Shown here: piece by piece, positions 2,092-51,934 of the stretch
Position numbering within the stretch: the first letter of the stretch is position 1
Layout: every line of letters starts with the position of its first letter
Sequence record: MH992123.1
Length of the DNA: 64,000 bases
DNA from: Escherichia phage OLB145
Strand: one strand, 5' to 3'
Notes under the pieces: model-generated
Told to the model about the DNA's origin: nothing
What the model saw: the letters and a program-made list of their open reading frames with translations, nothing else
Database searches by the model: none
Translations under genes and position numbers: made by a program

Positions 2092-2920
2092 GTATATTGC
2101 AGTAGCAATTGCAGGGCTAATCATTGCTCTAAGTTTAACGAGCTGCTATGACCGAGTTGAACCAGGTAATGTAGGTATTATCGTTAACCGTCTCGGTGAA
2201 GATAAAGGTGTGGAAAATGAGGTTAAAGGTGTAGGCCGTTACTGGCTCACTTGGAATGAAGAACTTTATACATTCCCGACCTTTAAGCAGATGAAGACCT
2301 ATGATGGTCTGTTCTACTTCCAACTGTCTGATGGTACTCAGATAGGTCACCAGATGGCTATCAGCTATAAAGTGAACCCTACTAAGGTAACTAATATCTT
2401 CCAGACGTATCGTAAGGGAGTTAATGAAATTACCGAGCAGGATTTACGACAACGTATTGCTGATGTACTTAACAGACAGGGTAACTTGATTAACACTGAT
2501 ACCTTTATTGATGGTGGTAAATCTAAGCTACTGGATAGTGTCACTGACACAATCCGTAAAGAGATGGAACCAGTGGGGATTGATATTATTGCTATCTCCT
2601 GGATTGGTGCTCCTGAATACCCTGACAACGTTAAACGTGCCATTAATGCCAAAGTAGAAGCTACTCAGAAAACTCTGCAACGTGAGCAAGAGATTCAGCA
2701 ACGTGTAGCTGAAGCTAATATGGAACGTGAACAAGCTAAGGGTGTAGCAGATGCTATTCTGATTAAGGCTAAAGCAGAGGCTGACGCTATTCGTTTACGT
2801 GGTGAAGCACTCACCGAGAACCCAAATGTAATGCAACTGGAAGCCATTAATAAGTGGAATGGTACATTACCTACCACAATGATTCCTGGGGCTACTACAC
2901 CTTTCGTTAATGTGAAATAA
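2084..2920 (+). CDS. SPFH/band-7 (stomatin/prohibitin-like) domain lipoprotein
   Basis: N-terminal signal with lipobox 'LSLTSC'; SPFH-like core; C-terminal coiled coil 'KAKAEADAIRLRGEALTENPNVMQLEAINKWNGTLP', resembling the prohibitin/HflC C-terminus. Confidence 0.6.
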   Translation: MYKYIAVAIAGLIIALSLTSCYDRVEPGNVGIIVNRLGEDKGVENEVKGVGRYWLTWNEELYTFPTFKQMKTYDGLFYFQLSDGTQIGHQMAISYKVNPTKVTNIFQTYRKGVNEITEQDLRQRIADVLNRQGNLINTDTFIDGGKSKLLDSVTDTIRKEMEPVGIDIIAISWIGAPEYPDNVKRAINAKVEATQKTLQREQEIQQRVAEANMEREQAKGVADAILIKAKAEADAIRLRGEALTENPNVMQLEAINKWNGTLPTTMIPGATTPFVNVK

Positions 2921-2926
2921 CTAAGC

Positions 2927-2957
2927 AAACCCACCATTACGGTGGGTTTATTTTTTT
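2927..2957 (+). terminator. intrinsic terminator
   Basis: 9-bp stem AAACCCACC/GGTGGGTTT (2927-2935/2941-2949), then TTTTTTT. Confidence 0.7.
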
Positions 2958-2983
2958 GAAGTTATCTAACACTGGGTATTCCT

Positions 2984-3208
2984 ATGAAAGTAAATGTTTT
3001 ACGTCGTAAGAAAGTTCCTTTCTTTCAAATCAATTGTGGTTCATGTTTTCAACACGATGATGACTACTATATGAAGTGTAGTTATCAATCTAAAGAACAC
3101 TTCTACGGTGTGAATTTACAAACAGGGCATCTGTTCACATTTGATAATAATGACTTTGTTTATCCTGTGACTTTAGAAGCATGTATTCCTGACCCGCTTA
3201 ATAAATAG
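2984..3208 (+). CDS. hypothetical Cys-rich small protein
   Basis: 74-aa ORF; 'CGSCFQHDDDYYMKC' suggests a small zinc-binding motif. Confidence 0.4.
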   Translation: MKVNVLRRKKVPFFQINCGSCFQHDDDYYMKCSYQSKEHFYGVNLQTGHLFTFDNNDFVYPVTLEACIPDPLNK

Positions 3209-4992: not shown

Positions 4993-6135
4993 ATGTCCAT
5001 GACAGATGCTCAATTAACCCGTGAATATGACAGATGTCAGGCTAAAGCCTTTATGGGCAAAACTGCTGCATTCTTTGGTTCACTGTTATGTTCCCTGAAG
5101 TTCCGTTGGGTAAAAGATGGCTGTGATACAGCACAAACCGATGGTGAGCATCTCGAATGGAATCCTGATTGGTTTGAAAGTCTATTACCTGAATCTCGTG
5201 TAACAGTACTTATGCATGAACTATGGCATGTTGGCTTACTGCATTCTGTTCGTATGGGTTCTCGTGACCCAGAAGTATGGAATTATGCCTGTGATATTTA
5301 TATCAACAATCAGCTTATTCAGGATGGCTACAGCTTTATAGGAATCGAAAATTGCTGGAAAGACCCTAAGTATGCTGGTTGGGCTGAAGAACAAATCTAT
5401 GATGACCTCATGAGCAAACAGATACGTCCTCCTAAAGCACATGGTGCTTTTGGGACTGGCTCAGGTGGTGACATGAAATCTTCCACTTCGAAGGCTAGTC
5501 AGGTGAATATTGTCAATAATGTAGTAAGAGCCATGCACCAACAGAAACTATCTGGTGGCTCTTTGCCTGGGGTATTACCTGGAAAAATGGAAGAAGTTAT
5601 TACTCAATTCCTGAAACCAGTAGTACCGTGGCAGGTTTTACTTGAACGCTTCTTCAATGACCTGCAAGAAACTTACTACTCATGGCAACGGCCTAATCGT
5701 AGATACCCTGATATGTACCTACCATCTCCTATGGATGATGACGGTAGACTGGAACATCTGGCTTATTTCCTCGATACATCTGGCTCCATTAAACCTAAAG
5801 ATGCTTTACGCTTTAGCTCTGAAGTGGCCTATGTAAAAGAGAAATATCAGCCTCAGAAGATGACTCTAGTTCAGTTCACTACAGAGATTGTAGACGAACA
5901 AGTCATTGAAGATGGTGATAAGTTTACTGATGTCACTATCAAAGGACGAGGTGGTACTAGTCTGGTTCCTGTACGTGAGTGGATTATTAAGCATAAGCCT
6001 ACTGCTGCCATTATCTTTACTGACTTAGAAGTCAGACCGATGGAGCCATTGCCATTTGACATTCCTGTCATATGGGTAGTTATTCGTAACCCTGGTGCAC
6101 AAGTTCCATTTGGGAAAATTATTAACATTACATGA
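4993..6135 (+). CDS. von Willebrand factor A domain protein with N-terminal HExxH metallopeptidase-like motif (N4 gp25-like)
   Basis: 'VLMHELWHVGLLH' (HExxH); MIDAS-like 'LAYFLDTSGSI'; SD GAGGAAA; adjacent to the AAA+ ATPase. Confidence 0.65.
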   Translation: MSMTDAQLTREYDRCQAKAFMGKTAAFFGSLLCSLKFRWVKDGCDTAQTDGEHLEWNPDWFESLLPESRVTVLMHELWHVGLLHSVRMGSRDPEVWNYACDIYINNQLIQDGYSFIGIENCWKDPKYAGWAEEQIYDDLMSKQIRPPKAHGAFGTGSGGDMKSSTSKASQVNIVNNVVRAMHQQKLSGGSLPGVLPGKMEEVITQFLKPVVPWQVLLERFFNDLQETYYSWQRPNRRYPDMYLPSPMDDDGRLEHLAYFLDTSGSIKPKDALRFSSEVAYVKEKYQPQKMTLVQFTTEIVDEQVIEDGDKFTDVTIKGRGGTSLVPVREWIIKHKPTAAIIFTDLEVRPMEPLPFDIPVIWVVIRNPGAQVPFGKIINIT

Positions 6136-6141
6136 GGTTTT

Positions 6142-6648
6142 ATGGTTGTTAATGGAAAACTATTGTTAGGTGCTATGCCCATTAAGGGCATGGTTAACAG
6201 TAAACTCAGTTCAGGTGAGACTACATTTGGACTGGGAGAAGCTGGTTATGACATCCGTATTAAACAGGATGTTACCTTCTACCGATTTCTTGGTTTGATT
6301 CCCTGCATCAAGATTAAAGATGAAGGAAAGACCAAGTGGAAGTTTGGCACTTTCACATTAGCTTCTGCAATGGAACGTTTCAATGTACCTGCTGGCCTAG
6401 TAGGTATTGTCCATGACAAATCCACATGGGCAAGGCGTACATTATCTGTATTCAATACCGTTATTGAACCAGGATGGTCAGGCTATCTGACTTTAGAACT
6501 GGTTTATCACGGTCGTAAAAAACTTCATATCCCTGCTGGTTCAGGTATTGCTCAGGTCATCTTCCATGAGACAGTAGAGAATACTGCCTACAATGGACGA
6601 TACCAGAACCAGCCTAATCAACCTGTAGCTGCTAAGTCAGCTCGTTAA
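6142..6648 (+). CDS. dcd: dCTP deaminase / dUTPase-superfamily protein
   Basis: 'IVHDKSTWARRTLSVFNTVIEPGWSGYLTLELV' resembles the Dcd/dUTPase active-site region. Confidence 0.55.
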   Translation: MVVNGKLLLGAMPIKGMVNSKLSSGETTFGLGEAGYDIRIKQDVTFYRFLGLIPCIKIKDEGKTKWKFGTFTLASAMERFNVPAGLVGIVHDKSTWARRTLSVFNTVIEPGWSGYLTLELVYHGRKKLHIPAGSGIAQVIFHETVENTAYNGRYQNQPNQPVAAKSAR

Positions 6649-37300: not shown

Positions 37301-38873
37301 CATCACGAATAGTAACTTCTGCTTCTGGTGCTTGAGCCATAGCTTCTTGTGCTGCCTGTGCAACATAGTCATCAGCAACAGGAGATGCTTCTTCATTCTG
37401 CTTCATAACCCGCTCACCACGAGCTACCAAAGTGTTCTTAATAGGGGAAACAACCTTACCTGCTACACTACCAGCAGCTTTAACACCAGCCATTGTGGTA
37501 CGCAATACAGGAGCAGTTGCAGCACCTGCTAAACGAGCAGCACCAGCCGGAGCCTGTACAACACCAGCAGAGCCAAAGCCATAAAGAGCACCTAAACCAG
37601 CTTGTGTACCGACACCTTTAAGCAGGTCTTGGTTCTTATCAATGTTTTGTTGCTGTGCAATATTCTGAGCCAGTTGTCCTGTAGCACCCTGAACACCTTC
37701 TTCCACTGTTTCACGGGCAAGGTTCATACCTACAGCACCTAAAGAACCAGCACGGAAAGGGGCCATCTCAAAACGAAATACCAGAGGACCAGTTGCAGCA
37801 GCAATAGGTAATTGAATAGCAGCAGCAGTAAGACCCGTTTCAGATGCAGTCTGACGACGAGCCTGTTCTGGAGACATACCATCTTTAATATGTTGCTGAT
37901 AAACAGGAGACTTCTCTAAGTCTTTAAGACTCATCTTCATAATTTCATCAGCAGTTTGTTGGTATGCACCACCAGCTTCTATTGCACCAACACCAACCAT
38001 ACCCGGTGCAGCTCTACCTACAGTAGAGGCAATACGAGCCAGTGACTGAGTACCAGTACCTGCATCAATAGCACCAGCCAATGCAGCACTACGAAGAGTA
38101 TTTGCTGGAACAACTGCTTTACCCAGTAAAGATGCACCCCTTAATACAGGACCAGCACCTAATAGAGAACCTACCCCTTCTGCTAACCCATCGGAAATAA
38201 TGGAGTCAGTTTGAGCAGCATTCTCAATTGAACCTACAAAATCACGTCCAAATTTAGATAAGGAAGCTACTATGTCATTAGTGCCTTCTTTCTTATCTGT
38301 TTGATACTGACGTTCACTCTCTACTTCATTCATTAAGTTACGAGCAGCAAAGAGCTTACGTTTATCTTGTAATGCCTGGCTTTGGGTAGCATGAACAGCA
38401 TCATTAAACTTACTCAATTGTTGAGCAACAACAGCACCTGCATCATCGTTGAGTAAGCCTGCCCCAAGAGCACCAATGCCCCCAAGGGTATTAACAAAAC
38501 CAAGACCAACACCAGTAGCAATATCACCCAGTTCTTCCCCAGGAGTTCTTGTAGTAACTGAATCATTGAATACCTGGTTCCCTGCATCAGCACGAGCATT
38601 GATAAGTTGTAAGCCTTGCTCAACCCCATACTTATTCATGATTTGCATTGGAGTCAGATTCATGAAATCTGATTGCACTGTCCCTGGTTCAAATGCATTA
38701 GCCCCAACATTACCAGTACGGGCAGCTTGCATTTGATAAGCAGCATCAGGAGAAACAAGAGGAGTAGTGACACCTTGTTCAGCTTTCTTCTGGGCGGTTG
38801 CAGTAGAGACGTCAACTTGCTTTGCATTGGTTACGCTGTCTGCGAACCCAGCCAGTCTATCAAATACTGACAT
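28371..38873 (-). CDS. virion-encapsidated RNA polymerase (vRNAP), giant single-subunit RNAP of N4-like phages
   Basis: Single uninterrupted ORF; track start 38891 is TTG, first ATG 38873 has AGGAAA 6 nt upstream and gives exactly 3500 aa, the length I recall for N4 gp50; position at the head of the late cluster. Confidence 0.8.
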   Translation of the reverse strand: MSVFDRLAGFADSVTNAKQVDVSTATAQKKAEQGVTTPLVSPDAAYQMQAARTGNVGANAFEPGTVQSDFMNLTPMQIMNKYGVEQGLQLINARADAGNQVFNDSVTTRTPGEELGDIATGVGLGFVNTLGGIGALGAGLLNDDAGAVVAQQLSKFNDAVHATQSQALQDKRKLFAARNLMNEVESERQYQTDKKEGTNDIVASLSKFGRDFVGSIENAAQTDSIISDGLAEGVGSLLGAGPVLRGASLLGKAVVPANTLRSAALAGAIDAGTGTQSLARIASTVGRAAPGMVGVGAIEAGGAYQQTADEIMKMSLKDLEKSPVYQQHIKDGMSPEQARRQTASETGLTAAAIQLPIAAATGPLVFRFEMAPFRAGSLGAVGMNLARETVEEGVQGATGQLAQNIAQQQNIDKNQDLLKGVGTQAGLGALYGFGSAGVVQAPAGAARLAGAATAPVLRTTMAGVKAAGSVAGKVVSPIKNTLVARGERVMKQNEEASPVADDYVAQAAQEAMAQAPEAEVTIRDAVEATDATPEQKVAAHQYVSDLMNATRFNPENYQEAPEHIRNAVAGSTDQVQVIQKLADLVNTLDESNPQALMEAASYMYDAVSEFEQFINRDPAALDSIPKDSPAIELLNRYTNLTANIQNTPKVIGALNVINRMINESAQNGSLDVTEESSPQEMQNVALAAEVAPEKLNPESVNVVLKHAADGRIKLNNRQIAALQNAAAILKGAREYDAEAARLGLRPQDIVSKQIKTDESRTQEGQYSALQHANRIRSAYNSGNFELASAYLNDFMQFAQHMQNKVGALNEHLVTGNADKNKSVHYQALTADREWVRSRTGLGVNPYDTKSVKFAQQVALEAKTVADIANALASAYPELKVSHIKVTPLDSRLNAPAAEVVKAFRQGNRDVASSQQKADSVNQVKETPVTKQEPVTSTVQTKTPVSEPVKTEPTTKESRPQAIKEPVSQSEKQDATLTNEDTIEQPTESVKETETSVKERTVTEELREGIDAVYPSLVGTADSKAEGIKNYFKLSFTLPEEQKSRTVGSEAPLKDVAQALSSRARYELFTEKEVANPAFNGEVIKRYKELMEHGEGIADILRSRLAKFLNTKDVGKRFAQGTEANRWVGGKLLNIVEQDGDTFKYNEQLLQTAVLAGLQWRLTATSNTAIKDAKDVAAITGIDQALLPEGLVEQFDTGMTLTEAVSSLAQKIESYWGLSRNPNAPLGYTKGIPTAMAAEILAAFVESTDVVENIVDMSEIDPDNKKTIGLYTITELDSFDPINSFPTAIEEAVLVNPTEKMFFGNDIPPVANTQLRNPAVRNTPEQKAALKAEQTTEFYVHTPMVQFYETLGKDRILELMGAGTLNKELLNDNHAKSLEGKNRSVEDSYNQLFSVIEQVRAQSEDISTVPIHYAYNMTRVGRMQMLGKYNPQSAKLVREAILPTKATLDLSNQNNEDFSAFQLGLAQALDIKVHTMTREVMSDELTKLLEGNLKPAIDMMVEFNTTGSLPENAVDVLNTALGDRKSFVALMALMEYSRYLVAEDKSAFVTPLYVEADGVTNGPINAMMLMTGGLFTPDWIRNIAKGGLFIGSPNKTMNEHRSTADNNDLYQASTNALMESLGKLRSNYASNMPIQSQIDSLLSLMDLFLPDINLGENGALELKRGIAKNPLTITIYGSGARGIAGKLVSSVTDAIYERMSDVLKARAKDPNISAAMAMFGKQAASEAHAEELLARFLKDMETLTSTVPVKRKGVLELQSTGAGAKGKINPKTYTIKGEQLKALQENMLHFFVEPLRNGITQTVGESLVYSTEQLQKATQIQSVVLEDMFKQRVQEKLTEKAKDPTWKKGDFLTQKELNDIQASLNNLAPMIETGSQTFYIAGSENAEVANQVLATNLDDRMRVPMSIYAPAQAGVAGIPFMTIGTGDGMMMQTLSTMKGAPKNTLKIFDGMNIGLNDITDASRKANEAVYTSWQGNPIKNVYESYAKFMKNVDFSKLSPEALEAIGKSALEYDQRENATVDDIANAASLIERNLRNIALGVDIRHKVLDKVNLSIDQMAAVGAPYQNNGKIDLSNMTPEQQADELNKLFREELEARKQKVAKAKAEVKEETVSEKEPVNPDFGMVGREHKASGVRILSATAIRNLAKISNLPSTQAATLAEIQKSLAAKDYKIIYGTPTQVAEYARQKNVTELTSQEMEEAQAGNIYGWTNFDDKTIYLVSPSMETLIHELVHASTFEEVYSFYQGNEVSPTSKQAIENLEGLMEQFRSLDISKDSPEMREAYADAIATIEGHLSNGFVDPAISKAAALNEFMAWGLANRALTDKQKRTSSLVQMVKDVYQAIKKLIWGRKQAPALGEDMFSNLLFNSAILMRSQPTTQAVAKDGTLFHSKAYGNNERLSQLNQTFDKLVTDYLRTDPVTEVERRGNVANALMSATRLVRDVQSRGFNMTAQEQSVFQMVTAALATEAAIDPHAMARAQELYTHVMKHLTVEHFMTDPDSTNPADRYYAQQKYDTISGANLVEVDAKGRTSLLPTFLGLAMVNEELRSIIKEMPVPKADKKLGNDVDTLLTNAGTQVMESLNRRMAGDQKATNVQDSIDALSETIMTAALKRESFYDAVATPTGNFIDRANQYVTDSIERLSETVIEKADKVIANPSNVAAKGVAHLAKLTAAIASEKQGEIVAQGVMTAMNQGKVWQPFHDLVNDIVGRTKTNANVYDLIKLVKSQISQDRQQFREHLPTVIAGKFSRKLTDTEWSAMHTGLGKTDLAVLRETMSMAEIRDLLSSPKKVKDEISTLEKEIQNQAGRNWNLVQKKSKQLAQYMITGEVGNNLLRNAHAISRLLGERITNGPVADVAAIDKLITLYSLELMNKSDRDLLSELAQSEVEGMEFSIAYMVGQRTEEMRKAKGDNRTLLNHFKGYIPVENQQGVNLIIADDKEFAKLNSQSFTRIGTYQGSTGFRTGSKGYYFSPVAARAPYSQGILQNVRNTAGGVDIGTGFTLGTMVAGRITDKPTVERITKALAKGERGREPLMPIYNSKGQVVAYEQSIDPNMLKHLNQDNHFAKMVGVWRGRQVEEAKAQRFNDILIEQLHAMYEKDIKDSSANKSQYVNLLGKIDDPVLADAINLMNIETRHKAEELFGKDELWVRRDMLNDALGYRAASIGDVWTGNSRWSPSTLDTVKKMFLGAFGNKAYHVVMNAENTIQNLVKDAKTVIVVKSVVVPAVNFLANIYQMIGRGVPVKDIAVNIPRKTSEINQYIKSRLRQIDAEAELRAAEGNPNLVRKLKTEIQSITDSHRRMSIWPLIEAGEFSSIADAGISRDDLLVAEGKIHEYMEKLANKLPEKVRNAGRYALIAKDTALFQGIQKTVEYSDFIAKAIIYDDLVKRKKKSSSEALGQVTEEFVNYDRLPGRFRGYMESMGLMWFYNFKIRSIKVAMSMIRNNPVHSLIATVVPAPAMFGNVGLPIQDNMLTMLAEGRLDYSLGFGQGLRAPTLNPWFNLTH

Positions 38874-38930
38874 AGTAGGTTTCCTATACAAACTTATATC
38901 TATTAGAAATCACACTATACCTAGTGTAAG

Positions 38931-38973: not shown

Positions 38974-40830
38974 TTAACGAGGAAATATATCAGGGATACC
39001 CAATCGACGTCCGGCATCTCTGCCTAAACTTCTCCGGTTTGCCTCGCTCTCTTCCTGTTTAATATTTTGTAGGCTCTTAATATCCAAATTCTGAGGGTCA
39101 GCAGCTACAGCACTACGAGCACCATCAAGAAGACGTTTAGCAGTATTAACTCGCTCCTGATAGCGAGGTAGTACACTTCTAAGGTTTTCCTGACCGGTCT
39201 GAATTCGACGCTGTACTTCACGTAAATCAGCAAGTGCAGTATCTAACGTATTCTGTGCTGCATAGATGTTTGATTGAATTTGTGCAGTAAGCTGATTACG
39301 AGCATTCTGTTCAATAGCAGTACCAGTAGTTGCAAGTTTTGCATTTGCTTCTACGGCTGCTTTATCCAGTTGGTAATCACCACCCAAATCAATAACATCA
39401 GTATCAAAGGCATTTCGAATACCACTAAACCATCCCTCTGGTTTACCAGTGATACTACGTTGAATGATTGCCCCTGCCATAGCGGGAGAAATAGCATTCT
39501 GTTTTGCTACCTCATTGATTTGTCGAACCAGTGCACCTTGGTTAATGCCTTTCAGTTCATTGCTATCAATAATACGTTTAGCCACCTGACCGGTCGTAGA
39601 GGGGTCAACAGTAGCAGCTTGGTATTCTGGCAGCAGAGTATTACCAATATTCTGCATATTACGAGTACCAACAGTATTACCAGCAACAGAAGTGAATGCT
39701 TGTTCTTGTAATGGATTAATAGAATTACCTGTTTCTGCTTGAGCAATGTAATCCTTCATTTCATCCCATGACAAGTTCTTATAAGCACCAGGAGTATCAT
39801 CCGGTAAAGCAGCCCATGTACTCTTCAGATTGCCATTCTTACGGGCATTAAAAATAGCTTCACCCAGTTTGTCTTGATTCTCCGGAGACATAGGAATGTT
39901 CTGCCAATCTTCACCAAATACCTTTGGAGCAAAGTCTTTAAGGGTATCTTGGTTAATCTGGTATGCACCAACAGGAGAAGCACCTAGTGTCTTCTTCATA
40001 GTGTCTTGATGCTGAACCACCTCACCTAAGTTCATCTGAGTAATAGGTACATCAGTTGGTGTGAACTTATAGGTAGTGTCATATGCAGAACCATTCCTAG
40101 TACCCTGAGTACCAGGAGGGGATAGAGATGCAGAACCAGTTCCCGGAGTATATGCACCTGGATATGCTCTATCTAACTGAGATAGTGCACGACTTACTGC
40201 TCCTGGTGACATTTGGTCGAACGTACCCTCTGCAAGCATACGAGCATCGTCAGCACTGTATGCACCACGACGAATATTATTCAGTAACTGCATAGCAGCC
40301 TGAGTATCCGCATCGTTACGCATATCAACACCTAAGTTGAATAAGCTGCGACGTTGACCAATACCAGCAGTACCCTGTCCTTGAAGGTTGTTCATGTAGT
40401 CCATAACAACACCAGCAGGAAGGGTTTTTAATACATCCCCATACTGAGCCTGTGCTGCCTGAACCTTTCTTGGGTCACCAGATTGATAGGCCAGAGCCAA
40501 TTCCTGTAATGCAGGGGCAGCAGCATCAGTAGCTGCATTTACCTTCATGGTTCTGTCATTACTGTATCGAGTGAAATCCAGATTTTGTTGTTTAGATGCT
40601 TGGTCTAACAGATTGCCAGCACGATTATCTAAGTTCTCCATAGTACGAGAAGAAATTAGAGAAGGGTCATAGCCAGCAAATAATGCTCCAGAAGCTAAGG
40701 CATTACGATACTCATTAGGGTCTTGGTAACGCATGGCTTCAGCCATAATTGCATCACCAGCTTGCTGTCTTGCAGAGTTTCGAAAATCACCTAATGCATT
40801 ACTCAATCCGGCAGTGGCATTACCCAGCAT
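38974..40830 (-). CDS. virion protein with SLT-like lytic transglycosylase motif (N4 gp51-like by position)
   Basis: 618 aa; 'NLGEVVQHQDTMKKTLGASPVGAYQINQDT' (aa 267-296) resembles the Slt70 'ES...SPVGASGLMQI' catalytic region. Confidence 0.5.
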   Translation of the reverse strand: MLGNATAGLSNALGDFRNSARQQAGDAIMAEAMRYQDPNEYRNALASGALFAGYDPSLISSRTMENLDNRAGNLLDQASKQQNLDFTRYSNDRTMKVNAATDAAAPALQELALAYQSGDPRKVQAAQAQYGDVLKTLPAGVVMDYMNNLQGQGTAGIGQRRSLFNLGVDMRNDADTQAAMQLLNNIRRGAYSADDARMLAEGTFDQMSPGAVSRALSQLDRAYPGAYTPGTGSASLSPPGTQGTRNGSAYDTTYKFTPTDVPITQMNLGEVVQHQDTMKKTLGASPVGAYQINQDTLKDFAPKVFGEDWQNIPMSPENQDKLGEAIFNARKNGNLKSTWAALPDDTPGAYKNLSWDEMKDYIAQAETGNSINPLQEQAFTSVAGNTVGTRNMQNIGNTLLPEYQAATVDPSTTGQVAKRIIDSNELKGINQGALVRQINEVAKQNAISPAMAGAIIQRSITGKPEGWFSGIRNAFDTDVIDLGGDYQLDKAAVEANAKLATTGTAIEQNARNQLTAQIQSNIYAAQNTLDTALADLREVQRRIQTGQENLRSVLPRYQERVNTAKRLLDGARSAVAADPQNLDIKSLQNIKQEESEANRRSLGRDAGRRLGIPDIFPR

Positions 40831-40918
40831 ATTGGAGAAAGTACGAATACTATCCCCAACACCAGAGAAAGAAACTAACTAAACAATACCCAAATCTCAA
40901 TGACTCATACGATACCTC

Positions 40919-41371
40919 TTAACGAGTTAAGCGATTGGCTGCAATGTAAGCATCAGCCGTAGATTGGTCACGATTTTCTGCAACAGCACGACTACGAGCA
41001 CGGTCTTCCAGAGCAGTGTTATAGGACTTAATCTGGTTATTCAGATTAGTGTTAGTAACATCTTTAGCAAAAGAGAACTGATTCTTAGCTAACTTGTTAG
41101 CCTGTAATGCACCATAGATATTACCCAGTGCATTAAGACCACCTAACCCCAACTGGAAGGTGGGAATATTCAGACCCAGTTGGTCAGTAAGCCCCCGAGT
41201 CTGCCCACCGGTATTCCCTGTAGCACCACCAGTAATATTCTGAAGCCAGTCATTACTAAGGATGCCGGATTGCATAGGGTTATAGTTCATGGTTGGGGTA
41301 TTAAAGGAACCATACCCATAGCCAAAATTGCTTTGTGCAGATGGGGTTCCAAAAAGGAAATTAGTATCCAT
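40919..41371 (-). CDS. Gly/Asn-rich virion protein (N4 gp52-like by position)
   Basis: 150 aa, AGGAG SD. Confidence 0.5.
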   Translation of the reverse strand: MDTNFLFGTPSAQSNFGYGYGSFNTPTMNYNPMQSGILSNDWLQNITGGATGNTGGQTRGLTDQLGLNIPTFQLGLGGLNALGNIYGALQANKLAKNQFSFAKDVTNTNLNNQIKSYNTALEDRARSRAVAENRDQSTADAYIAANRLTR

Positions 41372-51307: not shown

Positions 51308-51327
<20 letters not shown>

Positions 51328-51934
51328 TACACCTCTCCAGAGGGACATTACCAATACGGTTAGCAATCCATCCTGTAGTGTACTCAGGCATATTAAGAGA
51401 TAAATAGTAGTTTAACTGTTTACCATCCAGAGACTTCAAAATGAGCTTACAGGCTTCTACTTTGCCTCGTTTATTCTGAAGGCTTTTATATGCACTTAGA
51501 GTTCCAGAACCGACTTTACCATCAACTTGTATTTTAGGGTAGTCTTTGCCATTTCTGGAGAAAGCATTAAGAGATTCTTGTAACCAACGAGATGGTCTTG
51601 CAGGTCCAGTATTAACACCAGCATCTACTAGTTTTTCTGTTACCGCTGGTGATACATCTGCAAACTTAACAAAGCCAGGCTTCAAGATGTAATCGTTGTA
51701 ATAAATACTTGATGCCATTTCCTGAGTTAAGTTCTTCATTGAACCATCCCAGTTATACATCGACTCTAGTTCTTGCTTATGCTTTTGAGCAACCTGAATA
51801 GTTACACCATGATTAGTTTCACCTCCTGGGTCTTTGGGGTCATTAACGTATCCGCCCTCAACAGCAAATACAGCAGCAATGATTGCTGCAATAACCCCTC
51901 CAACACCACCAACTTTCTTCTTACTTATTGCCAC
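51308..51934 (-). CDS. N-acetylmuramidase endolysin (GH108-like with peptidoglycan-binding domain)
   Basis: 208 aa; 'EGGYVNDPKDPGGETNHGVT' (EGGY motif); GTG start 51934 preceded by AAGGAGG at 6-nt spacing. Confidence 0.75.

Follow-up and report, generated by a model that had tools for sequence, protein, structure and literature searches.

Lysozyme domains have been described in the ejection proteins of several podoviruses, namely at the N-terminus of T7 gp16 and at the C-terminus of phiKMV gp36 and Ar-KM gp42 (PMC4819975), while the tunnel proteins of the Dunnvirinae exhibit a central lysozyme domain near residue 300 (bioRxiv 10.64898/2026.05.18.726046). In coliphage N4, the ejection protein gp51 was listed as a homolog of IVP-C and was not assigned a lysozyme (Hardies et al.). 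Here, the gene for gp51 was analysed in a window of 64,000 nucleotides (nt) from Escherichia phage OLB145 (MH992123.1), i.e., the whole stretch of DNA to which all positions refer, where it occupies positions 38974-40830 of the minus strand. The centre of this protein is a remodelled lambda-type lysozyme fold, which has kept the sugar-groove residues of the lambda endolysin R and, as discussed below, may have relocated its catalytic acid.

The open reading frame (ORF) at 38974-40830 comprises 618 codons and a stop, and its DNA is 98.1% identical to coliphage N4 and 99.8% to Escherichia phage vB_EcoP_3HA13. Its product is 100% identical over 618 amino acids (aa) to the “structural protein” of Escherichia phage OLB145 and matches PHROG 6126, “virion structural protein” (E 1.7e-256), while the “66 kDa protein” of N4 in PDB 11mn aligns to aa 1-333. 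Because of these matches, the ORF is, on sequence grounds, that of N4 gp51, an ejection protein, and OLB145 an N4 strain of coliphage. Residue numbers below are those of the 618-aa OLB145 ORF, in which aa 1-229 correspond to N4 residues 27-255, E270 to N4 E296, and E366 to N4 E392. In N4, gp51 is located around the portal of full virions, whereas empty particles lack it (Bellis et al. 2026, PMC13434306); it resembles T7 gp15, makes a decameric channel as well as membrane pores, and is predicted to have hydrophobic residues at its C-terminus, possibly spanning the inner membrane (PMC13434306). As such, the protein carrying the domain is, by its identity with N4 gp51, a virion component and one expelled at infection (PMC13434306).

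The relationship with lambda R was established by profile comparison. Aligned with hhalign against the lambda R family, the profile of the gp51 domain gave a probability of 96.3%, an E of 1.6e-9 and a score of 61.0 over 65 columns, against 12.1 +/- 2.3 (maximum 19.7) for 40 column-shuffled controls. The lambda R family was represented by nine diverse relatives taken from phage records and 30-65% identical to lambda R, used instead of a word-indexed search, which gave only sequences at least 85% identical and useless for a profile. The 65 aligned columns hold exactly the GH104 consensus motifs that follow motif I, namely (i) G-x-Y-Q, where G-A-Y-Q of gp51 pairs with lambda G65-R-Y67-Q68, (ii) P-x-x-Q-D-x-x-A, where S-P-E-N-Q-D-K-L-G pairs with P88...Q91-D92...A95, and (iii) W-A-x-L-P...G-x-Y, where W-A-A-L-P...G-A-Y pairs with W124-A-S-L-P128...Y132. 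The residues invariant in the lambda family are G65, Y67, Q68, P88, Q91, D92, A95, W124, A125, S126, and P128, and in the complex of lambda lysozyme with NAG6, contacts or hydrogen bonds with the sugars are made by Gln68, Trp124, Ala125, Ser126, and Tyr132 (PMC6916166). Judged by these profiles, the gp51 domain is homologous to lambda R (GH104; “family 4” of Blackburn & Clarke 2001), a family whose lytic transglycosylases cut MurNAc-GlcNAc bonds and thereby form 1,6-anhydroMurNAc. The layout of the protein and of the domain is as follows:

38974-40830, minus strand: gp51 ORF, encoding a T7 gp15-like periplasmic-tunnel ejection protein (assigned from PHROG 6126 and PDB 11mn; role from PMC13434306)
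40144-40830, minus strand: N-terminal helical “leg”, aa 1-229 (N4 27-255), the part resolved in the decameric cryo-electron microscopy structure of deltaC-gp51
40087-40143, minus strand: flexible Gly/Pro/Thr-rich linker GTGSASLSPPGTQGTRNGS, aa 230-248, in which glycines but no acidic residues are conserved
39727-40086, minus strand: lambda-type lysozyme-like domain, aa 249-368 (N4 275-394)
40063-40083, minus strand: YDTTYKF, aa 250-256 (family consensus Y-D-V-V-x-G-x-G), a possible counterpart of lambda G-Y33-D-V-x-V-G-G
39985-40032, minus strand: helix H1 with its N-cap, NLGEVVQHQDTMKKTL, aa 267-282; the codon of E270 is at 40021-40023, position N3 of a capping box (DSSP, both models)
39943-39984, minus strand: G-x-Y-Q motif GASPVGAYQINQDT, aa 283-296, equivalent to lambda G65-R-Y67-Q68, of which Gln68 hydrogen-bonds sugar (PMC6916166)
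39862-39888, minus strand: P-x-x-Q-D-x-x-A motif SPENQDKLG, aa 315-323, with Q319 invariant and D or E at position 320 in 145/151 sequences
39781-39816, minus strand: WAALPDDTPGAY, aa 339-350, equivalent to lambda W124-A-S-L-P128-G-A-G-Y132, i.e., groove wall and “upper lip” with sugar contacts
39727-39768, minus strand: helix H4, WDEMKDYIAQAETG, aa 355-368; the codon of E366 is at 39733-39735 (DSSP, both models)
38977-39726, minus strand: C-terminal region, aa 369-618, poorly conserved (~24% mean pairwise identity)

The predicted structure agrees with the profile homology. Given aa 246-370 and an alignment of 43 sequences, AlphaFold2 reached a predicted local distance difference test (pLDDT) of 93.1 and a predicted template modelling score of 0.85, and a second AlphaFold2 model of the domain was also confident (pLDDT 95). 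The model exhibits four helices (268-282, 294-305, 316-330, and 355-367) in a lysozyme-like alpha+beta fold, which superimposes on lambda R (PDB 1AM7/1D9U/3D3D), its best structural match. A Foldseek search gave no match, which may be a reason for the similarity having been overlooked; lambda R itself has no match in Pfam, and an NCBIfam scan of gp51 returned nothing. The fold is nonetheless remodelled with respect to lambda R, since the lambda N-terminal helix with Glu19 and the helix at ~105-120 are absent from the gp51 domain, helix H1 occupies the place of the lambda “lower lip” segment, and the lambda family shows no conservation of the Glu that is invariant in the C-terminal helix of the gp51 domain. 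While lambda R is a free endolysin, the gp51 domain forms part of a virion protein of 644 aa. Another similar system, the baseplate hub protein of cyanophage A-1(L) (PDB 8KEA), differs from the gp51 domain in retaining an equivalent of Glu19, as well as in being part of a contractile-tail baseplate rather than an ejected tunnel protein. It could be argued that the domain has no wall function and serves as a structural “knee” or as an oligomerisation or plug module of the tunnel, its lysozyme look being convergent or vestigial; this is considered very improbable, since the profile homology has very strong statistical support and involves substrate-contacting motifs, and since the invariants Q291, Q319, E366, and W339 are polar groove residues and not those of a hydrophobic interface.

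Of note, Klebsiella schitovirus cp20 encodes a free-standing 162-aa lambda R-type lysozyme (ORF 5869-6357), 55% identical to R, so that lambda-type lysozyme genes circulate within the Schitoviridae. It is an ORF of its own, outside the gp51 of cp20, and presumably is the endolysin of this phage, replacing the GH108 enzyme of N4.

As revealed by the alignments of its homologs, the 120-aa domain is the compact, best-conserved part of a fast-diverging protein. In an alignment of 12 gp51 homologs of full length, drawn from divergent schitoviruses that infect Escherichia, Xanthomonas, Achromobacter, Erwinia, Burkholderia, Pseudomonas, and Stenotrophomonas, mean pairwise identity is 32% for aa 1-229, 46% for aa 249-368 and 24% from aa 369 onward, the domain being flanked by the Gly/Pro-rich linker (aa 230-248) and by an unconserved stretch after G368. 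With aa 246-370 as query, tblastn retrieved 137 phage records, with a segment identity of 45-70% in most of the matches listed. A word-indexed homolog search with the domain gave no match and was replaced by an exhaustive HMMER run against 1.84 billion cluster representatives, which returned 472 matches at E<=1e-3; in most of the 150 listed among these 472, the domain lies at ~residues 240-450 of proteins of 500-800 aa. Column counts were made on 151 sequences, representatives of 50%-identity clusters, in which G288, Q319, and E366 are invariant (151/151), followed by Q291 (150/151), T296 (149/151), and W339 (149-150/151). The domain is not universal in the Schitoviridae, since gp72 of DEV, the solved counterpart from a Pseudomonas schitovirus, was not matched by the domain profile. 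In five short metagenomic proteins (P0034, P0065, P0088, P0111, and P0121), the domain stands at the N-terminus of 130-320-aa products, one of them, P0088 (256 aa), being matched in three stretches; these may be gene fragments or genuine stand-alone domains, the latter, if real, being convenient for biochemistry. As for previous annotation, the literature search yielded no paper on the gp51 domain, on an N4 virion zymogram or on a lysozyme annotation of gp51, and a single GenBank product name: the SP5M homolog of gp51 is called “lysozyme containing protein” in one GenBank record.

An earlier note on this stretch, made from the letters alone, had pointed to a peptide at 39931-40050, within the ORF of a late virion protein, as resembling the catalytic region of Slt70, and had proposed the Glu at aa 270 as catalytic residue of a second wall-degrading activity used at injection, separate from a GH108 endolysin at 51308-51934. 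Much of this description is accurate, i.e., the minus-strand translation reads VPITQMNLGEVVQHQDTMKKTLGASPVGAYQINQDTLKDF and contains the peptide, codon 40021-40023 encodes Glu, the product of 51308-51934 carries GH108 and PG_binding_3 and is distinct from the gp51 domain, and a position within an ejected virion protein suits a wall-degrading function at ejection. A domain of the lysozyme/lytic-transglycosylase superfamily is indeed present, but it is not of the Slt70/PF01464 type, its nearest family being lambda R. A Slt70/GH23-type transglycosylase with Glu270 as catalytic residue in an “E...S-P-V-G-A...Q-I” arrangement would account for the SPVGA pentapeptide, identical in both and followed by Q-I, for weak PF01464 matches in some homologs, and for a spacing of 21 between E270 and Q291, the distance from the catalytic E to GLMQ being ~18 in SLT domains. 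The resemblance to Slt70 itself is nevertheless at chance level, with a BLASTP E of 18 for the aligned SPVGA...Q stretch and an hhalign probability of 0.4% between the domain-family profile and the Slt70 C-domain. When the profile hidden Markov model search proposed in the note was run, the window protein had no Pfam match even at E<=10, neither SLT nor any lysozyme family; this absence cannot decide whether gp51 carries a wall enzyme, because lambda R, too, lacks a Pfam match. Among 43 homologs scanned, PF01464 appeared below threshold in five (best E 7e-4; 16.7 bits in one scanned member, for a gathering cut-off of 21.3) and PF06737, the Rpf-type transglycosylase-like family, weakly in eight, such that the gp51 domain matches neither at Pfam cut-offs. 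These weak matches, moreover, begin after the catalytic Glu, covering positions 33-91 of 117 in PF01464 and 20-68 of 77 in PF06737.

The catalytic E-S motif, invariant in SLT domains, was not found either: position 270 is variable (E86/D34/Q21/G4/A2 of 151, i.e., E 57%, D 23%, and Q 14%), with D in 34/151 and Q, G or A in 27/151, and the next residue is V or A instead of S. Position 267 is mostly occupied by T or S (T87/S26/P16/K8/N6 of 151), and S/T-x-x-E/D/Q is the classic capping box of helices. In the predicted structures, H1 is a 15-residue helix, and its end opposite E270 leads into the G-x-Y-Q strand. Being variable, at N3 of the capping box in both models, and on a helix whose other end leads to that strand, E270 is probably structural and not catalytic. 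On these grounds, little credence is given to the Slt70-type assignment; the earlier note had recognised a real and biologically sensible feature, of which both the family and the catalytic residue were mis-assigned.

Regarding the catalytic residue in lambda lysozyme, the essential Glu19 ends the N-terminal helix that constitutes motif I, according to the passage of PMC4656821 citing Jespers 1992 and Blackburn & Clarke 2001. In gp51, the best remaining candidate for the catalytic acid is E366 (N4 E392), which is the only invariant acid in the alignments (151/151 and 139/139 sequences). Located one residue before the end of H4 and preceding x-Gly, it has a local context typical of lysozyme catalytic glutamates. 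The idea that the domain is an active wall enzyme descended from a lambda-type (GH104) lytic transglycosylase with a relocated acid is favoured because Pfam recognised no alternative wall hydrolase in gp52, gp53, or the N- and C-terminal thirds of gp50, and because of the homology, the constraint and the precedent of other podoviruses; even so, it is considered as likely to be wrong as right. In its more specific form, the domain would be a lytic transglycosylase of new architecture, the general acid having moved from Glu19 to E366 in the C-terminal helix and the fold having been rewired or permuted, which is put forward tentatively and with somewhat more doubt than belief. Such an enzyme might supply the “missing” wall-breaching activity of N4 as a ring of ~10 copies round the tunnel, a suggestion to which a similar reserve applies.

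Several observations weigh against an active enzyme with a relocated acid. First of all, the GH104 motif I, i.e., an N-terminal helix with Glu19 in S-E-G-T, has no detectable counterpart in gp51, as every sequence method used aligns the two families from G-x-Y-Q onward only. At low stringency, Pro/Ala of the linker is placed opposite Glu19 (A-P-G-T...x-Y-D-V vs. S-E-G-T...G-Y-D-V); the pairing of YDTTYKF with lambda Y33, likewise, appears only in low-stringency or global hhalign alignments and is of low confidence. No conserved acid is present in the 90 aa upstream of the domain, and “MLAEGT” (aa 197-203), tried as a look-alike of lambda MLAWSEGT, was rejected as a chance resemblance, its Glu occurring in 33/139 sequences only. 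When H4 was moved to the N-terminus to mimic a circular permutation, the hhalign score rose from 59.8 to 64.7 with E366 falling on Glu19, but this was equalled by 8/60 shuffled-helix controls and by the reversed helix. Finally, a search of the accessible literature yielded no zymogram or enzymatic data on gp51, and N4 ejection proteins were stated not to appear to have the peptidoglycan-hydrolysing activity needed for passage, which was proposed to be provided in trans (PMC13434306).

The same observations could be accommodated by a catalytically dead lysozyme relic, which would only bind peptidoglycan and anchor or register the tunnel, passage relying on natural pores or on host or other enzymes. 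Retention of the sugar-groove residues and loss of the Glu19 helix speak for such a relic, conservation alone backs the relocated acid, and activity in trans was suggested in PMC13434306; an E366 kept in 151/151 sequences, at the C-terminus of a helix and in the usual context of a lysozyme catalytic residue, is hard to explain by binding alone, however, and no other candidate wall hydrolase of the virion was found. A dead relic is considered unlikely, albeit a serious contender.

If the domain is an active wall enzyme, its history and mode of action may be pictured as follows. The lineage would have lost an internal helix as well as the N-terminal one that bears Glu19 in lambda, while the equivalents of Gln68, Q91-D92, Trp124-Ala-Ser, and Tyr132 are kept in a domain that sits, via the Gly-rich linker, between the N-terminal channel “leg” and the divergent C-terminal region. 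At infection, ~10 copies of gp51 would be expelled and assemble below the outer membrane, which would bring the domains to the height of the sacculus, just beneath the N-terminal channel close to the outer membrane. There, as we infer for binding, cleavage and the catalytic residue alike, the domains would attach to glycan strands and cut them locally, the acid being the invariant Glu366 (N4 Glu392) and not Glu270. The opened sacculus would then let the tunnel pass, followed by the 3,500-aa virion RNA polymerase (vRNAP) and the DNA. In the published structure, residues 52-255 (aa 26-229 here) of the deltaC-gp51 construct, i.e., N4 residues 1-359 (to aa 333 here), were resolved (PMC13434306); the disorder beyond residue 255 is readily explained because the construct ends inside the domain.

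Compared with the systems mentioned at the outset, gp51 shares with T7 gp16, phiKMV gp36/Ar-KM gp42, and the Dunnvirinae tunnel proteins a wall-directed domain within an internal protein building a trans-envelope channel, and with the Dunnvirinae, where it lies near residue 300, also its central position in a tunnel protein. It differs in that those domains are GH23-like or T4/GH24-like and belong to Autographivirales, while the gp51 domain is lambda/GH104-like and belongs to Schitoviridae, and in that the domains of T7, phiKMV and Dunnvirinae keep the canonical catalytic residues, which the gp51 domain apparently does not. Mutants of the T7 gp16 transglycosylase show their defect at low temperature or on stationary-phase cells.

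The surroundings of the gene also deserve mention. The gp51 ORF lies directly downstream of a 150-aa gp52 homolog (40919-41371), which has no Pfam match, and upstream of the 3,506-aa vRNAP gp50 (28371-38891). In phage AlfredRasser, the gp52 homolog (150 aa; 2640-3092) is annotated as “lysozyme-like protein” and gp51 as “hypothetical protein”, a label which probably belongs to the neighbouring gp51. The C-terminal part of gp50 contains an HExxH motif (...LIHELVHAST...), noted as zincin-like (PMC13434306), which might belong to a peptidase, perhaps one directed at the wall; Pfam gave no peptidase domain at this site. At the 5' side of gp51, the ORF starts at the equivalent of N4 Met27, and the codons before it are as follows:

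40831-40908, minus strand: 26 codons corresponding to the conserved N4 gp51 N-terminus MAQITWRNVDAPSFSGVGDSIRTFSN, reading here MSH*DLGIV*LVSFSG, where a 37-nt patch of densely spaced substitutions adds TGA and TAG

The patch (40870-40910) accounts for 18 differences from vB_EcoP_3HA13 in an otherwise near-identical stretch of 821 nt and turns the conserved MAQITWRNVDAPSF into MSH*DLGIV*LV. The identity of all 15 close relatives found falls to ~92% over a 221-nt segment containing it, save for VEc25 among them, at 97.7% in two pieces. There is no obvious Shine-Dalgarno sequence at the Met27 start in OLB145, and the 618-aa product is also the one given for OLB145 in the public record. An artefact of sequencing or assembly may underlie the patch, as may a knock-out-like replacement or a genuine truncation. 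In Escherichia phage VEc25 (MW175414.1 47615-48428), the 221-nt junction query was split across 814 nt, which suggests that ~600 nt have been inserted in this phage at the gp52-gp51 junction or close to it.

N4 is a model for the ejection of a 383-kDa protein together with DNA across the Gram-negative envelope, and the gp51 domain is the first concrete candidate for its passage through the cell wall, in conflict with the recent explicit statement that N4 ejection proteins seem to lack wall activity (PMC13434306). An active domain would represent a third lysozyme lineage in ejection proteins, and one whose catalytic residues are unconventionally arranged; an inactive one would exemplify the reuse of a lysozyme fold for anchorage to the cell wall. 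With either outcome, wall crossing by N4 becomes directly testable, the residues to be targeted being E392, E296, Q317, Q345, W365, and Y376 (N4 numbering).

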